The position numbers and the translations under genes were made by a program. Below, in pieces: positions 1 through 24,500 of a DNA stretch of 64,000 nt. The stretch comes from Octopus vulgaris (Eukaryota), in assembly GCA_951406725.2 (NCBI GenBank), contig OX597837.1, positions 15,066,001-15,130,000 of the forward strand, given 5' to 3'. Below the pieces are notes generated by a model that saw only the letters and a program-made list of their open reading frames with translations, did not search any database and had not been told where the DNA came from. How positions within the stretch are numbered: position 1 is the first letter of the stretch; each line of letters starts with the position of its first letter.

Positions 1-846
1 CAAGGCTTTGTTCGGTCTGACGCTACAGTAGAAGCAACTTGCCCAAGATGCCATGCAGTGGGACTGAACCCAGAACCATGTAGTTGGGAAGCAAGCTTCT
101 TAACACACACACATACATGTAACTGCACATGTACTGTTGGTGGTTTCTTTTCCTTTTCTGGACTTATCCCTTTCTCCTTTCTGATGAAGAGCTGTGCTTG
201 AAACATCAAACTCTCTTTTTTCCCCGAGTGTCAAACTAAAACCTTTCTTGTGCACGTCCTCTTCTTTGTTAATGTTACTCATTTATTTCAATTGACTGCA
301 TGTGTGTGTGTGGGGAGAGAGAGAGAGAGAGAGTGCAGGCATGGTTGTGTTACTTCCAACCCACATGGTTTCAGGTTCAGTCCTCCTATGTGACACCTGG
401 ACAAGTGTCCTCTGTTGTAACCCTGAGCTTAAGAAAGAATCCCATCACATGCACACACACATATATGTACGTGTGTGTGTGTGTTACTGTCTTCTTGCCA
501 TGATATTGCATAATAGTTGTAAACAAGTGTCACCAACATACAAGTGGTGTTGTTCCTTTCCAGTCATCTGTGAAAACACTTCTGGTCATGGGGAAATATT
601 ACCTTATTTGAGAACAGGTAAGTGTTGGTGAATGGGAAGGCATCCAGCCATAGAAAATCCACCTCAATGAATTCCATCTGACCCATGCCTGCATGGAAAA
701 GTGAACACCAAACTACTGATGATGAGGAGTTCAGTGGTGGATGATGCTTAAAAAGAAACAGGGACAGAATTTTTCTTAAACCAGTCAATTATTTCTTTTG
801 TTTCAATATCTCTTAATAATCTCCCTCGTTGTGTTTGCAATTACAG

Positions 847-915
847 AAATCTAAGGAATTGATCGCTATGGGTATCACAGGGCCAGAAGGACATGAAATG
901 TGTCGACCTGAAGAG
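847..915 (+). CDS. DPYS: Dihydropyrimidinase/CRMP internal exon (KSKELIAMGITGPEGHEMCRPEE); upstream exons lie outside the window
   Basis: ttacag acceptor and GAG|gtaagt donor; 69 nt, phase 0-0; GITGPEGH...RPEE motif of the DHP/CRMP family. Confidence 0.95.
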
Positions 916-1337
916 GTAAGTCATCTATCTCCATTTTTAAATCTCTCTCTAAATATTTTGGCAAATTTTCTTTTCTTTTCAATGAAAAATATCAAAGAAC
1001 TTCAACTTGGTACCTTTCAGTTAAACTCTAAAAGCAAGGATAATAAAGTGACAAGAATGGAGAAAGAACCAGACAAAATGCTTCAGGGTATTTTGTCCTG
1101 ACCATTTATGTTCTGAATCCAAATCACATTGATATTAGTTTCGCCTTTCATCCTTCCATGTCTGGCAAAATAAAGCACTGATGATGGACGATGAGGCAGA
1201 GATGTCATTGACTATGTCCTCTCCCCAACAAAATTTGTGGCCTTGCACCTGTCTTAGAACCATTAATTATTCCCTGGAATTATAGTATTTTATGTATCAT
1301 TTAAATGAATTTTTACATATAAATAATTTCAGGTTTG

Positions 1338-1380
<43 letters not shown>

Positions 1381-2667
1381 CATCCTCATTGTTTAACGTC
1401 CGTTTTCCATGCTGGCATGGGTTGGATGGTTCAACTGGGGTCTGGAAAGCCAGGAGGCTTCACCTGACTCCAGTCTGATCTGGCAATGTTTCTACAGCTT
1501 GGTGCCCTTCCTAACACCAACCACTCCAAGAGTGTAGTGGGTTCTCTGACATATATATATATATATACTCCCCCACCTGGACGGGGTGCTGGTCCATTGT
1601 AGGAGTATCTGTTTTTACCAGTAGAGTGGACTAGTCCAATGTCAAATGAAGTGTTTCACCCAAGAACACAACATACCGTTTGGTCCAGGAATCAAAACCA
1701 CAATCTTACAGTCATGAGTCTATATTCTTTTAGGGGTAACACCCTTCGCTTGAAAGTAAGGAACCCTAGTCTCCTCAGTTTTCACTTTCTCAATCTTACT
1801 CAAAAGCTTAAACGAATTGGCTGCTGTCGTACGTGTGTTTAGGTCTAAAAAGTCCAGGAAAACTCTCAGTTCCAAATTATGAAAATGAGGGATAGGAGGC
1901 AAAGCCCTGACAGAAGTATTCGATTATGCTAACAGGAACTGTAGACGGCCAACTGGTTAAGATGTTTGTCTTGTAATCACCAGGAGAATGCTTCAACCCC
2001 TCTGCATGACATCTTAGTAAGTTCCTTTTACCATTGCAACAGGGTACATCCAAACCCTCTGAGTAAGATCAGCTAAGTGGAAACTGTATGGAATCCCATC
2101 AGATGGATTGTAGGATTCCATTCGTAATCCAAAAGTCCTGCCTTGTCACTCTGGAAAAACCGACTCTGTCTGAAGATTACATCAAGGCTGCATGTGTCTC
2201 TGAGATAAAGACTCAGTTGATTTAAACAGCTGAAAGCTCATTATCAGAAATTCTAACAGACTCATTCATTTATATATAACCCGCATTAGTATTATTTAAC
2301 GATGTCGTTAAGCTAAAATTTCTTGATATTTTTCATCCCCAATTATTCCAAACAAGATATTTAAATATTTGATGTTAATTAATTTTTTCAATGAATTTGT
2401 CTTACAATTTACTCTACTTCTTGTAATTAATCATCTGTTACCTTTTTTTCTTGAAGTTAATTAATAATTTGTTGTCTTTTTATCTATGTTTGTATTTTTT
2501 TCTCATTGTAATTGGTAATATATTCATTTGTTACTATCATCATCATCACCATCACTACTGCATCCAAGGCTTTATAGTTTTCACGTGGTGTGCTTAATAA
2601 CCTTCATGATTTTCAGGCACAAAAGCCCATCATCAGAAGTAAACGGTCAAGAAGTGTTAGTCTAGAC

Positions 2668-2933
2668 CAATGCTTCTCAACCATTTCCTGCCTATGGACC
2701 CCTTAAATCCCCAGTCTACTCAGGTGGACCCTCATAACCATTCCACATTTAAAAACTCATATATTTTTATAATTAATTATTATTGGGAATTGTAAAAAAA
2801 AAAAAAATACATTAAAATATTTTGTGTACCGTAAAAGCGTAATCAATTAATTGCCGAAAAATATTAACAATAGGATCTTGTTTTGACCCCCTAAAGGTCA
2901 TGTGGACCCCAATTGAGAACCACTGAACCACTG
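2668..2933. mobile_element. hAT-type MITE
   Basis: Ends caatgcttctcaa / ttgagaaccactg; degenerate 8-bp TSD gtctagac / gtccatac; a second hAT-like relic follows at ~2947-3096. Confidence 0.6.
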
Positions 2934-4222
2934 GTCCATACTATGTTAGTCATGGACAACCTGTGGTCCAGGAATCTTTCTGAATGACACACCTGACCAA
3001 AAAAACGACCTTGGATTTTTGTTTAATAGTGCAGCCTTCCTGAAGATGCACCATGTCTTGTGTGGCCCAATTCTTGAAAAAGGTTGCCCATGCCTAATCT
3101 ATACAGAACCAGTCATGCTGATTGTAGTGCAGGCAGCAACGCCTGCAGTGTCCATGTGAGTGGTGGTGGTGGTGGTGGCTGCAGTGGGCGATCATAGCAG
3201 CAGCAGCAGCAGCCTTTCCCCAAACGGTGGCCACAGGTCACAGTGAGAGCAATGGTGAGTAGCTAAGCTGTTGGCTGATAGAAGTTGTGATAAAAGTAAC
3301 CACCTGTATTGGGGATACTGGTGCTGATGGTTGCCCATTGCTACTACCGTTGTAGTTGGTACTGTATAGACTAACACCTCTTGACTGCTTGCTCTTGATG
3401 ATGGGCCTTTGTACTGGAAATATAAAGGTTATTAAACTTTAGACTTTTCACATTGTAAGAAGCTCTCTGCCTTCGTTATTTTGTTATTTTATTTCTTTAT
3501 CACGATGCTACAACACTTTGTGGTCTTTTTGTTTTCTTCTTCTTCACCATTCTTCACTCAAAGCACTTTTGTTTCCAAATGCTTAAACGTGGCTCTTTTA
3601 CCGATTGGCTGTGTGTGTGTGTGTTTCTTAGTTAGAACACTAATCTCTTGAGAATCTTTAAATCTTATCCTGTTAATGCTGAAATCCTTGAAGCTAACAA
3701 AATGGTACTATGACTAATTTTATTATAGCTCTTCTCCCCCACCCACCCCACCCCACAGAAGCCAATACAAAAATACGATAAATAAAAACAAACAAAATAC
3801 ATCCTCATAGTTAGAATGTCTGGCTGGTGTAACACTCTTCGAGATTGGTATCAAGGCAGTGGAATGAGAAGACGATGTCCTGTTGCATTTAAGTTCCATC
3901 CTTCTTCACTGAGATCAAATCTCACCCAGATCATCTTTGCCTTTTGTCCCTCCAAGGGTCTATAAAATATTTATGTATATGTCATAAATCCAAGTCAGTC
4001 TTGCCAACCAGCCAGCCATGCCACCCACCCTTTAATATGTGGTCATCTGCTATAATCTAAGAAACCAGTATTTATTAAGTACACTGATTAAAATGTGCCA
4101 GTGAATCATCATCCCCCATTATTTAGTGTCCGCATTTCCATGGTTACATGGGTCAGATGAGGTTTATTGAGGCAAACTTTCTATGGCTGGATACCCTTCA
4201 CCTGTTTACAAGCAAGCTAATA

Positions 4223-4605
4223 CAGTGATACCTCATGGTACGAGTTTAATTCATTCCCTGACCGAATTCGTCTTACGATTTCCTCATTTTACAAATCAAT
4301 TTTCCCCATTGAAATTAACTGGAATCTAATTAATCCGTTCCAACCCCACCAAACAACTCAAAAATAAATTTTTATGGGTTTTAAAACAGAAAAGTGTAGT
4401 TGCAAATAAAATGACAATTATGAAAAAGAGAATGCAAAAGAAATATGTAAAGTAGTTTTATTAACCGAATTACCTTAAAGATGGGACGAATTATGATTTC
4501 TGCTTTTAATGCAGGTTTCTCTTCATATTTCAAAACAAAAATCCAAAGTCTCAGCTCTTACAGTAAATTATCATACAATGGGGCACTCGTACTGCGAGGT
4601 TCTAT
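4223..4605. mobile_element. Tigger/pogo-like MITE relic
   Basis: TA-cagtgatacctcatggtacgag start and degenerate inverted end ctcgtactgcgaggttc. Confidence 0.45.
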
Positions 4606-6806
4606 ATTTCTAATATTCTTGCAGAATAATGGAAATGAATGTCACTGCTTGTATAACAGTGACACTCATTTACAACTATCATATGATGTCAAGAAAGGGA
4701 ACCACACACTCACACACAGACACACAAAACTGGTTTCTTTCAGTTTCCTTCTACCAAATTCATTCGCAAGGTTTTGGTCAGCCTAAGACCATAGTAGAAG
4801 ACACTTGCTCATGGTGCCATGCAGTGAGATGGAACCTGAAACCATGTGGTTGTGAAGCAAGGTTCTTACCATACAGCCACATCTGCACCTATTCTATTTT
4901 GTAAACTGCAGAAACAATTTGGATATGGAACTGTTTAACCCTTCCATGACCAAACCCTCTGAGATGGCTTCTGGTTCTTTGATACAAAAACTGGGGTTTT
5001 AAAACTGCTTATATTCAAATAAAATGCCTCCCACCAGAATTTGCATCCAAGAATATTTTGCAATTTCCCAAACATCAGCTTAATCTCCCAATGAATGAAA
5101 AAAGTTGGTTATTTTATTAAATCCTTCTTAATTCATTATTTTAAAAGTTAAGAATTAGTGCAGAAAGAAAAAAATGATTTTTGCCAGAACTCAATACTGA
5201 ATCACCAAATATTTTACCACATTCCTCATCTCCAACAATTCTTTCATCCTCATCTTCATCGCTGCCATTCTTATTGGTTTAACACTTTCCCAGTCTCAGT
5301 TGAATTCTAATCGTCTGTTTACCACACAGCATATATTCATTTGTGTTTTGTGATCTTTAAGTTTTTAACCAAGCATGCTCCATCCACTTTTGTTGTGTTT
5401 CTATTTGTGCAGCAGATTTTAACACCTACTTTGGCCCTTTTTTAAAATTTTTTATTTTTCCTCTCCAGTGCACTTGCACTCAGCATGACAAATGTCTCCA
5501 ACTTCTGCTTGGAACTCATTTGTCCAATTGACCGTCTTCGTGTGGTCGTTACAAAGCAAGATACACCAGCAACTGCCTCCATACCAATGCTGTTTAAGTA
5601 TATCCCATAAGCATACCAGCTAAATTCTTTTCATAGTAAATTCTCATACCCCTCAGGAATCTGTTACCATCCCTAGTTTTAAAGCCAAGCTATTTGAGTT
5701 TTTTGACTTTGTGTTGTTGTAGACAACATTGAACTGCTTCAGAGGTTCCAACTCCAAATCACTATTCAAAATATTCTACCTCAACATTGCAGTTTTTAAA
5801 ATCCACCCTTGATGTTTATCAGGGTGGATTATTGCTAGTAATATTTTCTTGCAATGCTTGAGAAGTCTCTCAAAGAATTTTAATGTTTTAAGTATTGATA
5901 AAGATGATTAACTTCCAAGAAGCAGTATCTTTTCTTTTAACCCTCAGATAGCACTGGTATGGGTTTTAGAATCTTGGCAATTAAAAGAAAAATAATTTAG
6001 ATAAAGATCTGAAAATTATGGAAGGCAACGGGACTCCTTGTAAATTATTAAATTCAGAACATATTTGTTTCTCCATCTTTGAAATGCTGCTCACTAAAAG
6101 CTATGGTTCTGAAGAAGGGCTGCACAAGAGGATTGCAACTGAGGAATCCCAGCTTTGACCTTTGTGACGAAAGTGATAGAAAGAGGGGGGGGGGTGTTTG
6201 GGTGCTCAGTCATCAGCTCTTGTATGGCTGGTTTCATTTTGTCTCATCTGAACACAATCCCTTTATAGGAAACTCTGAGATTACACAATGGAGTTCTGTG
6301 AGTGAACAGTTGTAATCTAGTATGGACAATGACAATCTAGTACTGGACCGTGGCAGAGTACGATTGGACAATGGTATGGGATTGACATGAAAATCTGCAA
6401 TGAAACTTAAAAGCCTAAAATTTTCTTCACAAAAACTTCCTTTATTTTGAGAACTCAAAGTATTTATCTATGAATACCAATTAAATTTTATACATAGAGA
6501 AATCATATGCAGAAAACAGGTATGGTATTCAGAGCTTTACAGAACATACACATGTTTCAGTAAAATGCTGAAAGGATTACATAATGTGTATAGATATTAT
6601 GCTGTCATGCCACACATCATCAGTTTCCCAACATACATACATACATCCAGATGCTTCCACCACCTCTGCGCACTTGTGTTTGCTGTGTTTATCACTTTAT
6701 GTCACCTTTTGTTTTCCATTTTATTTTGTTCATTGCTGAATGTTTTGTGGCTTTGTTGCACTTGCATGCCTCGTTTTTTTATTTTTGTTTTTCAATTTTC
6801 TGCAAG

Positions 6807-6927
6807 GTGGAAGTTGAAGCAACAGACCGAGCGATTATGATTGCCGATCAGGCTAACTGCCCCCTCTATGTTGTTCATGTAATGAGCAAAACTGCTGCTG
6901 ATAGTGTCGCATTGGCACGGAAGCAAG
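6807..6927 (+). CDS. DPYS: DHP/CRMP mutually exclusive exon A, His (enzyme) form: [40 protein letters not shown](G)
   Basis: tgcaag acceptor, G|gtctgt donor; 121 nt, phase 0-1; [11 protein letters not shown] keeps the metal-ligand His (CAT 6876-6878). Confidence 0.93.
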
Positions 6928-9013
6928 GTCTGTCCTATGAATTGAGCATTTGATCACCAGAAAATTTGTTGCACCATTTTTTTTTTTTTTTCTCCAAACA
7001 AAATTTCAGAAAGAAAATTAATTTCACAATTTTCACCAATTCTTCCCCCCCCCACCATCTTTCCTATTTTACCATTTTATAGGTGCAAGCATTGCTTCCT
7101 ATCTGGTCTCAGGTTTGGTCCCTCTTCATGGCACCTTGGGAAAATGTCTTCCACTATAATTCCAGGCAAACCAAAGCCTTGTGAGTGGATTTGGTCGGTG
7201 AAAACTGAAAGAAGCCCCATTATAAATAAATAGAGAGCGGAACCTTGACATATGAATTCAATTTGTTCCTGAAGGTCATTTGTCAACTGAAATGTTTGTA
7301 AACTAAAACTATTTTTCTCGTTAGGAAATTCAAGAGAAAGCCTGGCAAATTCAATCTGGAATATTCCCTGAGCAAAAGCCAAACAGCAACTGACACTCTC
7401 TTGCTGCTGATACTCCCAGCTTGTCACCAGCTGTTGTTGCCTGTGTGTGTGTTCAGAAGGCAAGGTTCCACTGTATTTGCACATGTATGTGTGTACTCTT
7501 GTCCTGATATCACATGGTGGTTGTGAATATGTTTCCCATCTTCTCTAAAGATATGTCTGGCCATGGTAAATATTACCTTGCTTGGAAATAGATGAGTGTT
7601 GGCAACAGGAAGGGCATCCAGCCATAGAAAATTTGCCTCAACAGATTTCATCTGGGCCTTGCAAGCATGGAAAAGTGGAGATCAAATGATGATGGGAAAG
7701 ATTGATTTCAAACCAATGAGGAATCTACCTCAACAAATGCTGTCCAATTCATGCAAACAGGTTAAAAGTGGATGTTAAAAATTAAGGAAGTCCAAATATA
7801 GTCTTGGAAAAGATAGGGTGGGGGGGTTAAGATACCTCCTTCAATTTTTGTTTTTAAAACCAAATAATAATTGGTGAAAATAGTGAACAGTTTTTCGGAC
7901 ACTTTTAATGTTTTAATTTGGTGCAAGGAATTTTCTAGTTTCAAAGTTTTTGGTGGTGGTGGCTATACTGATGATGATGATCTTTTTTACAAACCTTGAC
8001 TCTAATCTCTTAACCCTGATAACCCTGGTTATCTGTTTATTATTTTTTTTTTCAGCAATTTATGTTTATTGTACCAGCTAACAATAGTAGATATAGTAGC
8101 AAAAAATATTCTATTTTTCTTATTAATTCAAACATGGCTTATTTGACTGTCATCTATGCTGAAATTATTATTATTATTAATTAATTAAAAAAAAAGAAAT
8201 TGAAAATCTCAAATTAATGAATTATAATAATTTAATTATAAAGCAAAATCTCACCTGACATAGTTCTATATATTTTTCACTCTTTGATGAACCAATCTCT
8301 ACATAATTTTAAATAGATTTGATATAGATTTTCTACATTCTCTGTGCTTCAAGAAAGGCAATGAAAACCCTGTAATTATTAGACCCTTGTTAGGGTCCCT
8401 TAAACTAATTATCTACTTTGGTTGGCTTTTGCCTCCACAATCAATATAGTCTGCAATGAACTAAGATGTAGTTTGTTAATCTCATGTGGGAATGCATGCA
8501 AGACAAACCCATGAATAAGGTGACAACTGGACCATCATTTACCTATGTTTAAGCCACAGTGTCTGTTTATTAAATAGATAGATAGGTACACCTATACACA
8601 TCAATACATACTTGCTCACATCAACCATAGACTTTTTTTTTTCCTTCTTGTGTAATTTCTGCTTATTACAATCTCAGAATTTTTCTTTTAATGACAGCCT
8701 AAAATTCAGGGCTCCACTGATATTCTAACATTAACAAGAGATGGTTTTTTTTGTTTTGTTTTTTTCGCTGTAATTACAACCCCAAGAAAAGCCAGTTTTC
8801 AATCGTTTAAAATTCAATCTAAACTTTTAAAATTTGATTTGAAATAATTTCTGCTACTGACTTTTTACTATTGTTTCTCTTGCAATTTACATAATTCTCT
8901 TTCTTCTTTCCTCTCTTCCTATTTGTACACACACACGCACACACACGTGTGTGTGGCTGTGTACTTTTTCTGTTCCGTATAACCTGCTTTCACCAGGGAC
9001 GTTCGTATTGTAG

Positions 9014-9134
9014 GTTGAAAAAGAAGCTGTACAACGTGCACTCACCATCGCCAACCAGGCCAACTGCCCACTGTATGTGGTTAAAGTTATGAGTAAAGCA
9101 TCTGCTGAAACAATAGCAGATGCTCGCAGATCAG
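9014..9134 (+). CDS. DPYS: DHP/CRMP mutually exclusive exon B, Lys (CRMP-like) form: [40 protein letters not shown](G)
   Basis: ttgtag acceptor, CAG|gtaggc donor; 121 nt, phase 0-1; paralogous to exon A (25/40 aa identical); AAA Lys at 9083-9085; absent from the ORF track. Confidence 0.92.
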
Positions 9135-10106
9135 GTAGGCTTAACGATCACTTAGATGATGATGATGATGATGAGGATGCTGTTGCTGCCTGAAGACGGC
9201 AATTAAATGATGCCAGCTTCTTAGGCTCTATATATTTTGTGTGTGCATATCATATATACTTACTGTGTGTTCTGTAGTTGTTGTAATTGTTATATTATTA
9301 TTGTTCTTATTAATTAATACAGGTAATGTTTGTTTGCTTTTGTTTTATTTATTTTTCTACTTAATGAACTGCAATGGTGGAGGGAGGGAGGGAGGAGGGG
9401 CTTTAGATTAAAGTTAGCCCCATCACCACCACCGCTACAGCTACATTTACACATTCACACTGACCCCAACGACCTCTTCTCTGAACCAACTAGTTGTATA
9501 GCCCCTCCACCCAGACCTTATCTGATTCACCCTGTCCCCTCCTCCCACTGGTTGGGCCCCTCGGATCCTACCCTATACACTTCTTCTTACCCCAGTCCTC
9601 TTCCACCCCACAACTGCAATCTTTTCAGATCTCTTATCTGCCTATCCTTTTCCTGCACCTCTCTGGAGTTGCTTCTTGTCCCCACCACATTTTTTCCCCC
9701 TGCAATCCTTTTGGGTCTTCTCCTCTTCCCAGATGAAAAAAACTGAAACTGACCTCAGCAGGATGTGAATTTTGAGCCCTGAGGGTCCCAACAAATACTG
9801 CAAAGCAATCCCTCCGGTATTCTCATGACTCTGTCCCCCTCACAACTGTTTCGAAAAGGAAGGAAAGCTCTGTTGCTCAATGACAGGCCCTGTTATAACA
9901 ATCCTTTCTACTATACGCACAAGGGCTGAAATTTGAGGAAAGGGGGTTAGTTGATTACAGTGACCCCAGTACTCAACTGGTACTTATTTTATGGACTCCG
10001 AAAGGATGAAAGGCAAAGTCAACCTTGGGAGAATTTCAACTCGGAATGTAAAACTGGAAGAAATGCTGCTAAGCATTTTTTCGGTTGTGCTCACAATTCT
10101 GCCAGC

Positions 10107-10145
<39 letters not shown>

Positions 10146-10297
10146 GGATGGTCAGAGTTTGAATGCTCTTGATCAAAGGTCTGGCTCAGAGCTAAACAAC
10201 AATCCAGTCCTATAAAAGAGCTTCTACTCTAGTCTTTCAACCTACTGTACTCACCCTACTGTTTTAAAAGATTGTATAATTTAATCCTAGGTATAGT

Positions 10298-10560
10298 GAA
10301 GGCACGTGGCTTAGTGGTTAGGGCATTCGGATCACGATTGTAAGGTCGTGAGTTCAATTCCCGGCCACGCGTTGTGTCCTTGAGCAAGACACTTTATTTT
10401 CATGTTGCTCCAGTCCACTCAGCTGGCAAAAACGAGTTGTCACACTCTGTGTCATGCTGGATCTCCCTGAGAACTACATTAGGGGTACATGTGTCTGTGG
10501 ATTGCTCAGTCACTTGCACGTTAATTTCACGAGCAAGCCGTTCCATTGATCAGATCCTGT
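10298..10560 (+). mobile_element. tRNA-derived SINE (similar copies at ~13157-13460, 17528-17830, 26092-26335, and ~52220-52370 on minus)
   Basis: A-box tggcttagtgg, B-box gagttcaattcc, followed by gtgtccttgagcaagacact core; multiple dispersed copies. Confidence 0.75.
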
Positions 10561-13500
10561 CTGTATACTCTCTCAAGAAAAAGAAAAGACTGGTTAATCA
10601 GGTTCCTTCTCACATTTACTATTTTATGGTCTTTGGTCTTCCATACTTATCGTTAGGCAAGGTCAACAAGGAAACGATGATTCCATTGCACTAACTGTGC
10701 TGCACCAACAGATTCTGTAATATTTTCTTAATTCCTGAGTAATAGACATAGTATTTTAGGATTTAAGTTCTGATATTTTGGCAGTAAGCTCTCTTCAAGT
10801 GTTTGCAGTACATGATAACACACTGTGAGTTATGCCAAGTTATAATCCCGTTATCACGTACCATAACACTTCTCAAGTGTTCCATTTTGTGCCAACAGAC
10901 TGTGTGTTCGGTTAATTCTTTTGGTAATATAATCTTTACTTGTTGAGCTCTGGTTTCTCTTCTGGCAAAGGACTTCCTTCAAGTGTTCTGCGACATAACA
11001 AATTGGCTGGAAATGGTAGCAAATGAAGATTAGATAACTCTTTTATTTAATAATAAAAAAGTCGTTGATTTTTTTTTTTTCTTTTTATCATTAATAGCAA
11101 AAATGTCTTTCTTAGGTGTAGACTGATTTCAAGTGGAGTGAAGAGGTTAATAAAAAAAAAAAAATGTACATTTGAAGAAAACAAAACCAACTTTCACAAT
11201 GTCTCATGGTAAACTCTCCATTGTCCCCTGCAGGGGCAAAATCAGAGCTCAGAAGTTCCGATTTCTCTTCACAAAAAAATTCATATTATATACCTAACCT
11301 CTAACAATACACTAGAATATTCTTTAAGCAATTGTGGGTGACGAATAAATATCACACACACACATAATATGTGCACAACAAGCCCACATTTGTGGTGATT
11401 GTGACATTCCGTTCAGTTTATTAGCAAAACATGACTGAATTTGGAGAATTGTACAAAACACAGCAAAATGGTTCATTCAACCATAAGGAATGCGTGAAGA
11501 TCATTTTTGTTGATAAGAAGGAAAAAGAAAAAAGCCCAACATATTTCAGTGTTTGAAGGTTATTGGCTCCTCCCACTCCCTTACTAGTTCACTCTTTTAT
11601 GTAGGAAGGTATTTAGTGTTTAAAAATGCAATTGGTGGTGGTGGTGGTGGTGGTTGACCAAGTCAGGAAAATAATACTGTGAACCATTCAACCGTAGGCT
11701 AACTATAAATGAAATCATCATCGTTTAACGTCCGCTTTCCATGCTAGCATGGGTTGGACGATTTTGACTGAGGACTGACGAACCAGATGGCCACACCAGG
11801 CTCCAGTCTGATCTGGCAGAGTTTCTACAGCTGGATGCCCTTCCTAACACCAACCACTCCGACAGTGTAGTGGGTGCTTTTTACATGCCACTGGCACGGG
11901 GCCAGTCAGGCGGTACTGGCAACGACCTCGCTCGAATCTTTTTACACATGCCACCAGCATAGGTGCCAGTGAAGCAACGTTGGTAACAATCACGCTCGAA
12001 TGGTGCCCTTTTATGAAATACATTGATAAACTTGGTTTGTGCCTGTCAACTATGACAAAGTCAAACAAACCCAAGAGGTACCATACGATGACATAAATTG
12101 TTGATTCATTATAATTATCGCCACTTGTAGAGAATGTGTCATGATTACCAAATGGCAATTAAGACCAGTTCTGCTCCATGTGAGGAGGGCAGACAATCTC
12201 AGATATCAAATGTTCTCCAAAGTTGACATGCCATTAATTGAAAAGACAAACTTGAGATAGCCTGAAGATAAGGGGGCAGTAATGGACATGTGTTTCTGTC
12301 TTAATATACATCATCAGCTCAACAATTGTCCTACCTTTCTCCAGTAGCCAAGCGACTTGAGACTTCTACAAAAAGTGCATAATTTAACTAAAAACGAGCC
12401 AATTACTTCATAACCCAGGGCTGTCTCAAGATCAATGAATGAAATTAGATGGAAGGAAACTGTAAAAATCCTTCTGAATGAATTCTGCCCATATTTGAAA
12501 GGGCCAGCATTGTGTTATGCACACACTGTCACACTGATCCTGCATGGGGGTTCTGTTGAAAGAACAAGTCTTTGTGGAATATTCAGACACATTGATACTG
12601 CAATACAATAAGAAAGAAAGAAAGATAGATAGATAGAGAGAGAGAGATAGATAGATAGATAGATCTGTTAGACAATTAGAGAGTTATTGGTTCTTAGAAA
12701 CCCAACAGTCAACAGATCCAGCATATTATATATGTTAATGTAATGTGTAATATATGTTAATATAATGTGTAGATGCAAGTTTATATTTATACTGTGAACT
12801 TGGTAGACTTGTGCAAATGTATAATCAGTCCACCATTTTCATTGCAGTGAGTTATTAGTATTGGTCCCCTGTGAATGACATCAAAATGTCAACCTTATGT
12901 TGCATCCTCCCCTCACCTTTTTTTTAATTTATTTATTTGCTTACTAATTCTATTATTTATTACCAATTTTCGTTGCAATATCTTGTTTTGAAATAAATGT
13001 GTGTGTGTGTGTGTGTGTGTGTATATTGAAATGTATTTGTGTGTCAGTATATTTGCATGTGTGTATAAATATGTGTAAGTGTGTTTCAATATTCCCATGT
13101 GTATTGAAATTCTATGCCAGGGTGTTTATTATGCGTGATGGGATGTAGATGGGTGTGGAGGCACATAGCCTAGTGGTCAGAGCAGCGGACTCGCGGTCGA
13201 GGAATCGCGGGTTCGAATCTCAGACCGCGCGATGTGTGTGTTTATGAGCGAAACACCTGAGCTCCCCATGACTCCGGCAGAAGGTGATGGCGAAAATGCT
13301 GCTGACTCTTTCGCCACAACTTTCTCCCACTCTTTCCTCCTGCATCTTGCAGCTCACCTGCGACGGACCGGCGTCCCGTCCAGGTGGGGAACCTATATGC
13401 CAAGGAAACCGGGAAACCGGCCCCTAATGAGCCAGGCATGGCTCGAGAAGGAACAAAAATGAATGATGTAGATGGGTGCGGGTGTTTGTATATAATGTAG

Positions 13501-14137: not shown

Positions 14138-14294
14138 GAAAAATAGTTTTTGGTGAACCAATAGCAGCTAGTTTAGGTACGGATGGAACACATTATTGGA
14201 ACAAATGTTGGCGCCATGCTGCTGGTCATGTTATGAGTCCACCCCTAAGAGCAGATACATCTACCCCAGGTTATTTGATGGACCTTTTATCAAA
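14138..14294 (+). CDS. DPYS: DHP/CRMP exon (G)[51 protein letters not shown](N)
   Basis: taacag / gtaatt splice sites; phase 1-2; [12 protein letters not shown] and SPPLR motifs. Confidence 0.95.
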
Positions 14295-15131: not shown

Positions 15132-15215
15132 CAATCTGGGAAAATGGATCCATGTAGATTTGTGGCAGTAACCAGTACCAACGCAGCTAAGATATTTAAT
15201 ATTTATCCCCAGAAG
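15132..15215 (+). CDS. DPYS: DHP/CRMP exon [28 protein letters not shown]
   Basis: ttctag / AAG|gtaaga; 84 nt, phase 0-0; [14 protein letters not shown] motif. Confidence 0.95.
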
Positions 15216-15715: not shown

Positions 15716-15895
15716 GGGCGAATCGCCGTAGGTTCAGATGCTGATCTTGTTATTTGGGATCCAAATGCAACTCGTACAATCTCTGCTAAAACTCATCATC
15801 AGGCCTGTGATTTTAATATTTTTGAGGGTATGGTGTGCCATGGAGTACCATTGTATGTCATTATGGGAGGACATGTCGTCTTAGATGAAGGCCAG
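15716..15895 (+). CDS. DPYS: DHP/CRMP exon [60 protein letters not shown]
   Basis: ttttag / CAG|gtaaga; 180 nt, phase 0-0; [10 protein letters not shown] amidohydrolase motif. Confidence 0.95.
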
Positions 15896-16997: not shown

Positions 16998-17084
16998 CTT
17001 AAAGTCTCTCAAGGTCTTGGTCGTTTCATTCCTATGCCTCCCTTTGCTGAAACTGTATATGGACGTGTTGAAGGTCGCGAACGT
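16998..17084 (+). CDS. DPYS: DHP/CRMP exon LKVSQGLGRFIPMPPFAETVYGRVEGRER
   Basis: tttcag / gtaagt; 87 nt, phase 0-0; GxGRFIP motif. Confidence 0.93.
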
Positions 17085-18318: not shown

Positions 18319-18505
18319 GCAAGGATGCCCAAAAAGGTTGATCGTGAGCCGTACACTGGAACTGTTGTTGAAATTATGGCTCCTGAGGAATTTGACACAA
18401 GGAAGTCGGACAATCCTATTCTACAGGATCCTCAACCATTCCATGCCCGACCACTTACTCGAAGCGGTGCTCGCAACCAGCAAGACTCTAGCTTTACATT
18501 GAGTG
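18319..18505 (+). CDS. DPYS: DHP/CRMP exon ARMPKKVDREPYTGTVVEIM...RSGARNQQDSSFTLS(G)
   Basis: ctttag / G|gtaagt; 187 nt, phase 0-1; V-x-R-x-PY-x-G and RNxxxSSFxLSG resemble the CRMP tail. Confidence 0.92.
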
Positions 18506-21500: not shown

Positions 21501-24500
21501 TTCTATAGAATTCTTCAGAAGTTCCATTGCTGCCTTCATGGAGAGATTTCTATTTAGAATTCCGTTGTGCTTCTGTGTTTTCCTTTGCTTAAGGCTCTTC
21601 CCTAAATGTTCAATTTGTTCTCTTTGACAGCAATTTTATGCTTTATTTGCTAATTTAAACCATTTCCAGAGAACACTTTTTTTTTCTTCCTTATTTCTCT
21701 TTTTTCTTTTGTCATAAGCAATGGCTTTCCTGGCTTATGCGACACTAAAAAAAAATACAATAAAACAAGGCAATGCCTTGTATATTAAGCATTTTATTTT
21801 TTTTTGTCTTGACTATGAAAAATAAAATGAAGACACCAATTTGCTGGTCAACAAGCAGGAAATTTTAAATGGTCGATGCTCTTTCTTGTATTTAATTTTA
21901 GCCAAACCGTTTGCTGGACCTGAAGTTTGGACTCACTGTCTGCGTTCCGCTATTTGTTGCAAAGTCTAGAACAAACTTTTATTTCACCATAAATTGCTGT
22001 CATTGACCATTAAATGCTGAAATAGGTAATAAGCTAACGATCTGAGCAATGCCACCCCCACTGTAGTTGATACTTCTAGGCTTAATTAATGGAACTATAA
22101 TTAGGGACAACCTTAACGATGTGACTGTGTAAGGCAAAAACGTGTTCTTTCACTCGCTCTCTCTCTCTCTTTCTTTCTTACTTCCTGTCTCTCTCTTTCT
22201 CTATCTCTGGCAAAGGATGAAACGAACAATGAAATTCCAGCCACGTAAGATATGCCAGCAGCCGGCAGTAAATTCATTCCGTTCTAAACTAACCCTCACT
22301 AACACTTGACTCAATCAATCATGGAATATTTTTTTTCCAGTTGGCAAAGCTTTAACCTAAAAATTTTCATTTCTCAATAGAACAAGGAAATAACCAACGA
22401 AGGAGGGATTATCATTCAAACAGTGAGTAGGCCCCTTTCCAATGCACCACTCATCTTGGCTGATTTGAGCTTTCTAGCAACTCTAGAATGGACTGAGTGA
22501 CTCGTCTCTCAACTGCCAAAACAAACCTTCCTGATAATTCTTCATATAAATATATCTTCACAAATCTCCTCGGTTTTTTTTTTTTTTTTTTTCAATGACT
22601 TTTCTAATAACCTTTTTGATTACATTTTTTGTATTAATTTTCACAGCTTCATATCATAACATGGCAGCATCTCAGTGAATGTTCTTTATTACTCACTCAT
22701 TTTCTAGATTATTCTACAAGTTCTTACATCGGTAGATCCATACTGGAAAACCCCTTGGGATGTCTCTCTCATCATAAACATCATTTTCCAATCAAATTAT
22801 CATAGATTTTTGTTTTTTCATACAAATTATTCCATCCATTTGATCAGCATCTCATTTTACTCACAAATCATCATCATTCCTTCTTCCACTATTACCATTT
22901 ATTATTGCTAGGGCGGCAAACTGGAAGAATCGTTAGAACGACAGGCAAAATGCTTAGCAGCATTTCTTCCGTCTCTTCATTCTGAGTTCAAATCCTACCA
23001 AGGTCAACTTTGCCTTTCATCCTTTCGGGGTCAGTAGAATAAGTACCGGTCAAATTCTGGAGTCAGTGTAGCCCCCCTCCCTACAAATTTCAGGCCTTGT
23101 ACCTGTAGCAGAAAGGACTGCAGAAATGTTTGATCCCTTCCAATAGCTTTGTGCTATTTCTTCCAACTCTTTACATTCTGGGTTCAGATTTGAATTGCAT
23201 CAAGGTTGATTTTGCCTTTCATCCTTTTGGAGTTGACAAAATAATTACCTGTTATCTACTGGGGGTTGAAGTAATCGACTTCCCCCTCCTGTGCAAAAAA
23301 AAAAAAAGGTGGCCCAGTGCCAAAATTTGAACCCATCATCAATATTGTATTAATAATATATTTTTCTTTTCTATTTAATGAAAGAATTTCTCCTGTTGCA
23401 AAGTCCCTTTAAAACAGCAGATATTTAACCGTTTAAGGACACCCCCCCCCCCTGATTCCTTCAGACATCTGCTTCTGATAACACAAGTCAGGTTTTTATA
23501 TTTTCATCGTTTGAGCTAAATTGAAGCCAATTAGGAATTTAGGGGAATCTTTAGAAACTAGAAACTGCTGAATGCTGTCCCAACACAAACCCACCACTTT
23601 CCAAATGTGGGACCAGCTGATAGCCTTGAAATATTTTCTTTTAGAATCTTTAAGAATCACAGATACATTTAAATGTCATACCATATACATTATGTGTATA
23701 TATATTCTTTTGAAGGATTTGAGCGATTTCTTTACCCTCAAGTTGCTTTATGAAACAGCTTCCTCCTCATTTTTACATCATCTTAACTCTTCAGTGACCC
23801 CTTTTTTTCGGTTGGTAGCTTCTGAGCCCACAGCAGCCAATTTGACTTCTGAAAAAGAAAGATTTTTTTCTTTTGGGTGTTGTAAATAGTTTTTTTATTA
23901 TTTATTTATTTATTTATTGGTTGATTGTTTTGGTGACAGGGATTTTGTTTTGGGTTTTTTTTTAAATCCTGATACTTTTCAGGGAAGTTTTATTTTTCCC
24001 CTGTTCCTGCTAAACATTTTCGTTATAGTTTTAGTATTTTTAAAAAAAGGGCAATAAAGAAAAATAACTTTTGTGTATTTCTTGCTAATTAATGTTGGCT
24101 TATTTTGTTTTATTTTTAAAAACAATTTTTTTTTCTCTAAATACACATTGTGGTTTTATTGTTGGTGTTTGACTACATTTTTAAAAAATATAACTAATCT
24201 AAGGTTGATTTTTTTTTTTTTTTTTCTGTTTTTACTTCAGTGGGGGTAGGAGAAGAAAAAAACATTTAAAAAAAAAAAAACTAGGATTTGAAATAATGAG
24301 TCTTTCTGCATGTTTTGATGAGCAATTTCCCCTCTAGAATTACTGGTAGTATTAATAAATTTGTGTTAGTAACTCCAGCAGTTCCAGTTAAACTTTCAGC
24401 TCAACCCAATTGCTTTTTGTTCTCCGCACACACACACAAGTCTTTATATTTCTTGAGCTTCTTTATGGAATTATTGATTTGCATGTCAACGAGTGTGGTG

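Follow-up and report, generated by a model that had tools for sequence, protein, structure and literature searches.

We consider it probable that a single gene of Octopus vulgaris gives rise, by alternative splicing, to one of two proteins: isoform A, with a zinc-binding histidine and a complete dihydropyrimidinase (DHP) active site, or isoform B, with lysine at the same position, which is likely inactive, CRMP-like and probably neuronal. The choice lies between two paralogous 121-nt exons, A and B, arranged in tandem within the 64,000-nt stretch of the forward strand that we analyzed (contig OX597837.1, positions 15,066,001 to 15,130,000; hereafter the window).

Paralogous exons in a single DHP/CRMP gene

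The features of the gene within the window are as follows:

847..915, plus strand: common 69-nt exon 5' of the switch, with a phase 0 donor at 915
6807..6927, plus strand: exon A, 121 nt, 40 codons; His codon 24 is CAT (6876-6878) and corresponds to the zinc ligand His248 of DPYS
9014..9134, plus strand: exon B, 121 nt, 40 codons; Lys codon 24 is AAA (9083-9085) and corresponds to Lys254 of CRMP
14138..14294, plus strand: common 157-nt exon 3' of the switch, single copy in the genome
14603..14744, plus strand: common 142-nt exon with the catalytic Asp (DPYS Asp326)
15132..15215, plus strand: common 84-nt exon
15716..15895, plus strand: common 180-nt exon
16998..17084, plus strand: common 87-nt exon
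18319..18505, plus strand: common 187-nt exon, C-terminal tail
22381..22422, plus strand: optional 42-nt exon, C-terminal tail, adding 14 residues
37098..37186, plus strand: final coding exon, to the stop codon

Exons A and B, both bordered by AG and GT, stand exactly where the preliminary description had placed them, with the length, phase (0 to 1) and 25 of 40 identical residues that it had reported. The two are identical at 78 of 121 bases, silent differences occur in 13 of the 25 codons for identical residues, and the proteins made with A and with B differ in 15 of the 40 exon residues. When the 79 open AG..GT candidates of 118, 121, or 124 nt on the plus strand of the window were scored against a reference exon set that included A and B themselves, A and B scored 195 and 191 and the next candidate 8. 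A search of the whole genome (2.8 Gb) with exon A returned two matches only, A and B, and neither this search nor the scoring of window candidates found a third copy. No second copy of the neighboring exons was found in the genome, which likewise has no second DHP/CRMP gene by searches with the TIGR02033 profile and with the next exon downstream (other best hits had E-values of 0.07 to 0.87).

The exons encoding His67, His69, Lys159, and His192 lie outside the window, ~5.9 to 18.9 kb 5' of its base 1. An alternative first exon ~62.5 kb upstream of base 1 matches the short N-terminus of some isoforms, and the annotated Octopus isoforms have at least four distinct N-termini. Toward the other end of the gene, the optional exon at 22381..22422 is present in 8 of the 15 listed members of the Octopus protein cluster, with His and Lys isoforms alike; in vertebrate CRMPs the C-terminal tail is the region of regulatory phosphorylation sites. 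An open frame on the minus strand (56756-56355) encodes two C2H2 zinc-finger motifs and is, as judged by eye, an exon of a neighboring gene.

In a frame test with the exons at 847-915 and 14138-14294 as flanks, the construct stayed open with A alone or with B alone, while A and B together led to a stop at codon 65 and the skipping of both to a stop at codon 26, bearing out the claim that inclusion of both or neither breaks the frame. Splicing was followed in transcript contigs of four public runs (from 24 listed) over window positions 780-12900; the runs come from four studies and two organisms, carry no tissue labels, and are assigned to RNA by a program's guess. The junction into exon A, 915>6807, was present in run X21 (depth 306) and the junction into exon B, 915>9014, in runs X2, X13, and X17 (depths 1513, 329, and 71), each run showing only one of the two. 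Depth was 0.2 in the bin covering B in X21, and 0.32 in the bin covering the start of A in X17. On the 3' side, one X2 contig extends past the border of B and covers the initial bases of the exon at 14138 (9134>14138). The corresponding junction of A, 6927>14138, lies beyond the contig-mapped range, and A followed by that exon is found in annotated isoforms of O. sinensis and O. bimaculoides; among the 15 listed cluster members, four have A then exon 14138 and eleven have B.

Three of the four junctions named in the preliminary description are thereby present in contigs, including the one that reads into 9014-9134. Its claim of mutual exclusivity, which leaves room for some low-level co-inclusion, is also supported by the finding of one exon per run, the early stop of the A+B construct, and the lack of a 6927>9014 joint among the 15 joints listed of 180, a count made on contigs, which drop rare forms. 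Exon choice is sample-specific. The idea of exon B as a degenerating duplicate or a product of misassembly has a negligible probability and is refuted by the contigs that splice it, in three studies and two organisms. The exon B peptide is identical to that of Octopus bimaculoides XP_014772445.1, whose protein cluster includes O. vulgaris, O. sinensis, and Argonauta records; this identity of the exon B protein sequence across three Octopus species, together with the tandem orthologues in other animals described below, also speaks against decay or artefact. Intronic repeats at ~1185-1990, 4425-5230, 6930-7660, 9690-10900, and 11715-12120 had very high contig depth in all four runs and are likely abundant SINE-type elements.

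The active site of the two isoforms

In an alignment with full-length CRMP2 (8dnm), residue 1 of the switch exon falls on residue 231 and exon residue 24 accordingly on Lys254, and the His of exon A aligns to the His of fish DHP. As His248 of DPYS is equivalent to the metal ligand His239 of 1GKQ and to Lys254 of CRMP1 (PMC2999344), the alignment and that source together confirm the assignment, made at the outset, of this His as a metal ligand that CRMPs replace with Lys. Judged by its residues, isoform A completes the dihydropyrimidinase active site, with His67, His69, Lys159, His192, His248, and Asp326 (DPYS numbering) all present, and isoform B is short of one ligand, retaining five of the six and having lost only His248. 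The five are kept in B because they lie in exons common to both isoforms. The description of B as a CRMP-like pseudoenzyme therefore holds as regards Lys254 but needs qualifying, in that B, with five of six active-site residues intact, is far less degenerate than a vertebrate CRMP.

The inactivity of CRMPs has been ascribed to the loss of His69 and His248 (PMC7325199), and the H239A mutant of Pseudomonas DHP is inactive (PMC4437985). Loss of His248 would remove a ligand of the second zinc, whereupon catalysis would stop, and we regard isoform B as likely inactive, the nearest tested mutant being this bacterial His to Ala rather than His to Lys. By analogy with the fly, and given the motif upstream of exon A described below, isoform B is probably used in neural cells, and we infer for it a CRMP-like function. 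In Drosophila, pyrimidine catabolism is supported by the non-neuronal isoform with exon 9a, which has the His, and not by the neuronal isoform with exon 9b (PMC8652244, on Morris et al., 2012, Genetics 191:1227).

Two other readings of isoform B have to be weighed against a CRMP-like function. B might be a dampener of pyrimidine breakdown, an inactive subunit that joins tetramers or replaces the enzyme and lowers beta-alanine production in excitable cells. Such a role would be compatible with B differing from A by one exon and so lacking the further changes of CRMPs (Lys159 and Asp326 are kept), and with the tetrameric state of both DHP and CRMPs (PMC7325199). We think it unlikely, since switching the gene off would be simpler than retaining a dead isoform for more than 500 million years (an age given from general knowledge), B is abundant in three runs, and the non-His isoform of the fly is neuron-specific (PMC8652244). 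Alternatively, B might still be an enzyme, working with one metal or on another substrate, with the Lys amine partly replacing the second metal; all nine B exons have Lys at residue 24, and a single paper states that the mammalian imidase holds one metal (PMC2999344). The presence of five of the six active-site residues might be cited in the same sense, but these residues are uninformative about B, lying as they do in the common exons. Both isoforms also exceed the TIGR02033 cut-off of 393 bits (605.9 for the His isoform P0131 of O. sinensis and 601.7 for the Lys isoform), yet vertebrate CRMP2 does so as well, with 641.8, and the profile therefore cannot tell enzyme from pseudoenzyme. With the H239A mutant inactive and the non-His fly isoform failing to support catabolism, we give an enzymatic B a slim chance at best.

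Distribution of the pair and a shared upstream motif

Isoforms of the same gene that differ only in residues 1-40 (numbered from the start of the switch exon), with His or Lys at residue 24, are found in O. sinensis, O. bimaculoides, the chiton Liolophura (one His and four Lys isoforms), the brachiopod Lingula (nine His and two Lys), and the hemichordate Ptychodera flava (seven His and six Lys). The Ptychodera isoforms include five matched pairs, all of them His/Lys (5/5) and all with one common set of 12 differing positions, which extends from 1 to 40. Gene models of Mytilus and Mya carry both segments, His first, and the representatives of Saccoglossus and Sinanodonta are the Lys form. A metagenome scan matched 314 stretches, of which 254 were confirmed and 80 loci kept; tandem 121-nt AG..GT exons, His then Lys and 380-780 nt apart, occur in six of these 80. 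Among these six, L031, L035, and L038 were placed with Mya, L034 was placed with Capitella, and no position was obtained for L063; L039 differs very little from L038.

Other animals listed His forms only, in counts of annotated isoforms for which absence from a list is not absence from the genome: limpets (9/9), pulmonates (11/11 full-length), and Gigantopelta (6/6) among gastropods, as well as Glandiceps (5/5), Owenia (four), Tubulanus (two), Capitella, Ciona, and Nematostella. The His form was likewise found in the 15 listed of 33 Haliotis proteins and in the 15 listed of 95 oyster proteins. In the DNA of one animal group (e.g., L017 and L019) a single His exon lies between the neighboring exons.

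Several observations made along the way concern other variants of the gene. Two proteins of the Lys form, P0052 and P0056, are placed with Capitella (100/96), which suggests that more annelids have the Lys exon. Pro occupies the His248 position in separate paralogues or copies of caenogastropods (P0044, P0058, P0060, P0067, P0079, and P0119), in Branchiostoma lanceolatum (P0156, P0159, and P0160), and at loci L087 and L092; the snail Pro forms arose by gene duplication, and the listed relatives of those snails show no Lys exon. The gene model of the bivalve Solemya velum (P0006) has, at residues 348-454, a repeat not of the switch exon but of the exon that follows it (residues 41-92), which may represent another alternative pair.

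Upstream of the His exon, the octopus shares a short motif with most of the tandem loci:

6763..6768, plus strand: TGCATG, candidate Rbfox-type silencer, 44 nt upstream of exon A

In five of six lineages (octopus, L031, L034, L038/L039, and L063), TGCATG occurs no more than 200 nt 5' of the His exon, and in L035 the 137 available bases contain GCATG. Among controls, it occurs at 4 of 36 other exons of the same genes, 0 of 12 single-exon loci, and upstream of B at 1 of 7 loci, where the control exon starts are approximate and 3 of 13 octopus exons have the motif too. The enrichment relative to the 36 other exons has a Fisher p of 0.0008 (0.003 without octopus, 4/5), values to be read with the fact that the motif was chosen after being seen in the window and that five motifs in four regions were counted. 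Counts of YCAY, branch-point, and UGCY motifs showed no contrast between A and B.

A conserved UGCAUG adjoins the alternative exon, as would be expected of an Rbfox-regulated exon. Rbfox bound upstream typically inhibits an exon (PMC11874969), and it represses egl-15 exon 5B through upstream binding (PMC3585155). In the mechanism that we hold likely, Rbfox at the UGCAUG upstream of A would repress A in nerve or muscle cells, B would be used in its place, and the early stops would clear messages that contain both exons or neither. The C. elegans pairs egl-15 5A/5B and unc-32 7a/7b likewise have UGCAUG in the intron upstream of one exon (PMC3585155), and differ in that binding and effect of Rbfox are demonstrated for them, whereas the evidence for the octopus-type pair is the recurrence of the motif.

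Two other means of exclusion were considered. The intron between A and B, at 2086 nt, is too long for steric exclusion. A docking-site/selector pairing was rejected, as the longest perfect complement among six intron flanks is 14 bp and lies in a high-depth repeat, all others being 10 bp or shorter.

Origin of the switch

The Drosophila CRMP gene (FBgn0023023) is, like that of octopus, the single DHP/CRMP gene of its genome and contains mutually exclusive paralogous exons, 9a and 9b, one giving an isoform with the zinc-binding His and the other without it (PMC8652244). To this extent the preliminary description was right to equate the two switches; what did not hold is the identity of the exon unit, which differs in the arthropods examined. 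The stretch that distinguishes the isoforms of Procambarus (three pairs) and of Macrobrachium runs from residue 17 to 93, and a repeat of ~16-93 is present in gene models of an isopod and of hymenopterans, so that the arthropod unit, with borders taken from decapods, an isopod, and hymenopterans, spans approximately residues 16-93 in contrast to residues 1-40 (121 nt) in octopus. The arthropod alternative exon changes many residues in 41-93, whereas the octopus isoforms share them. The replacement of the His also varies, being Gly in the fly (PMC7954323 and its preprint), Ala or Thr in hymenopterans, Asn in crayfish, and Lys in prawn and isopod, in contrast to the invariant Lys of lophotrochozoans and hemichordates. 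Residues 41-93 form one common exon in octopus, Lingula, and Ptychodera, so that one or more duplications must be peculiar to arthropods, and the different unit (16/17-93) makes the fly switch likely a separate event, provided that the fly follows the other insects. Of 20 arthropod quartets (residues 16-40), 14 favored a separate duplication, with AU tests rejecting nothing. Over residues 41-92 the hymenopteran alternative exon groups with vertebrate CRMP (98/85), on long branches.

Vertebrates and amphioxus have His248 in DPYS and Lys254 (Arg in amphioxus) in CRMP, as octopus has in A and B, but distribute them over separate genes (DPYS and CRMP1-5, or DPYSL, in vertebrates; DPYS and CRMP in amphioxus). 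Chordate CRMPs also lack Lys159 and Asp326, which were lost in 15 of 15 listed amphioxus proteins and in lemur CRMP2 (the latter is without His69 too), whereas octopus B loses only His248. Outside the switch exon, the octopus protein groups with molluscs and not in the chordate CRMP clade. A route from one arrangement to the other is splice isoform separation, in which two ancestral homologous exons end in two paralogous genes (Abascal et al., 2015, PMC4494069), and we propose it for DPYS/CRMP. The 11 cases listed in that paper all fall within vertebrates, and its main text mentions neither CRMP nor dihydropyrimidinase; the DPYS/CRMP case would be older than these and would part an enzyme from a pseudoenzyme.

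The ancient origin suggested in the preliminary description is upheld, the same-gene isoforms of chiton, Lingula, and Ptychodera taking the pair back at least to the mollusc-brachiopod ancestor and possibly to the bilaterian one. We are confident of a lophotrochozoan origin of the His/Lys pair, and give about even chances to a single bilaterian origin that fed the DPYS/CRMP split by gene duplication. We count for one origin that lophotrochozoans and hemichordates have the same exon and the same Lys, that Lys or Arg occupies the site of residue 24 in all chordate CRMPs examined, and that residue 6 co-varies with it: all A exons (8/8), chordate DPYS (5/5), and outgroups (2/2) have Thr there, whereas Val, Ile, or Ala is found in every CRMP (6/6) and in 6/9 B exons. 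With the remaining 355 columns, a quick tree joined chordate CRMP and DPYS (SH-aLRT 89), as expected of a duplication on the chordate stem; in a careful protein tree the support for this fork was below 80 and an older duplication was not rejected (p-AU 0.094).

The competing account, in which His248 was lost independently in lophotrochozoans, in hemichordates, in arthropods, and, through gene duplication, in chordates, with Lys reached several times, is to our minds a serious one, its probability a little short of even. With the His/Lys column left out, all six Ptychodera quartets favor duplication within the species, and the pairing of DPYS with A and of CRMP with B is seen in no more than 4 of 35 quartets; in arthropods a different unit was indeed duplicated, and two malacostracans have Lys there; and convergent tandem exon duplication is common (PMC9741552, whose main text on exon duplication is without CRMP or dihydropyrimidinase). 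Orthology is favored for mollusc pairs in 7 of 10 cases and for mollusc-Lingula pairs in 3 of 5. Separate origins would mean that one and the same exon had three times undergone an identical two-base codon change at a single residue, and residue 6 also follows the division of A and DPYS from B and CRMP. A phylogeny of exon peptides with DPYS and CRMPs, of the kind suggested as a check, rejects neither side, a hemichordate A+B clade having a p-AU of 0.41 and a B+CRMP clade one of 0.39; with 39 and 52 columns, such trees of the exon alone left the deep branches without resolution, and p exceeded 0.05 in each of the eight AU tests.

Under a single bilaterian origin, one gene of the protostome-deuterostome ancestor would already have yielded both a liver-type enzyme and a neural pseudoenzyme, with Rbfox governing the choice within a His/Lys exon pair that would persist today in octopus, bivalves, chitons, brachiopods, some annelids, and acorn worms. 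After a gene duplication in chordates, the copy with the His exon would have become DPYS and the copy with the Lys exon the ancestor of the CRMP axon-guidance family, Lys254 being a relic of B, and arthropods would have rebuilt the switch with a different exon. We rate this full sequence of events as evenly balanced between true and false.

The conserved enzyme/pseudoenzyme exon switch is real, it is similar in kind to the Drosophila case, and its link to the origin of vertebrate CRMPs is testable. In the literature searched (in part the best 25 of 3,652 matches; listings and abstracts, with few subscription papers) we found no report of a His/Lys switch outside arthropods, the fly case being the only one. 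Approximately half of these isoforms carry the name "dihydropyrimidinase" in databases through automatic annotation, though by their residues they are likely inactive. CRMPs, which arose from a metabolic enzyme, are central to the wiring of the vertebrate nervous system. Since the residues that distinguish the natural A and B proteins, 15 of 40, all fall in one exon and include a zinc ligand, the transition from enzyme to pseudoenzyme can be assayed directly at its first step, and since the same exon pair is present in a deuterostome, a splice-form origin of the DPYS/CRMP split can be tested. If the pair had one origin, it would be more than 500 million years old, again an age from general knowledge; otherwise, animals would have arrived repeatedly at the same change from His to Lys.
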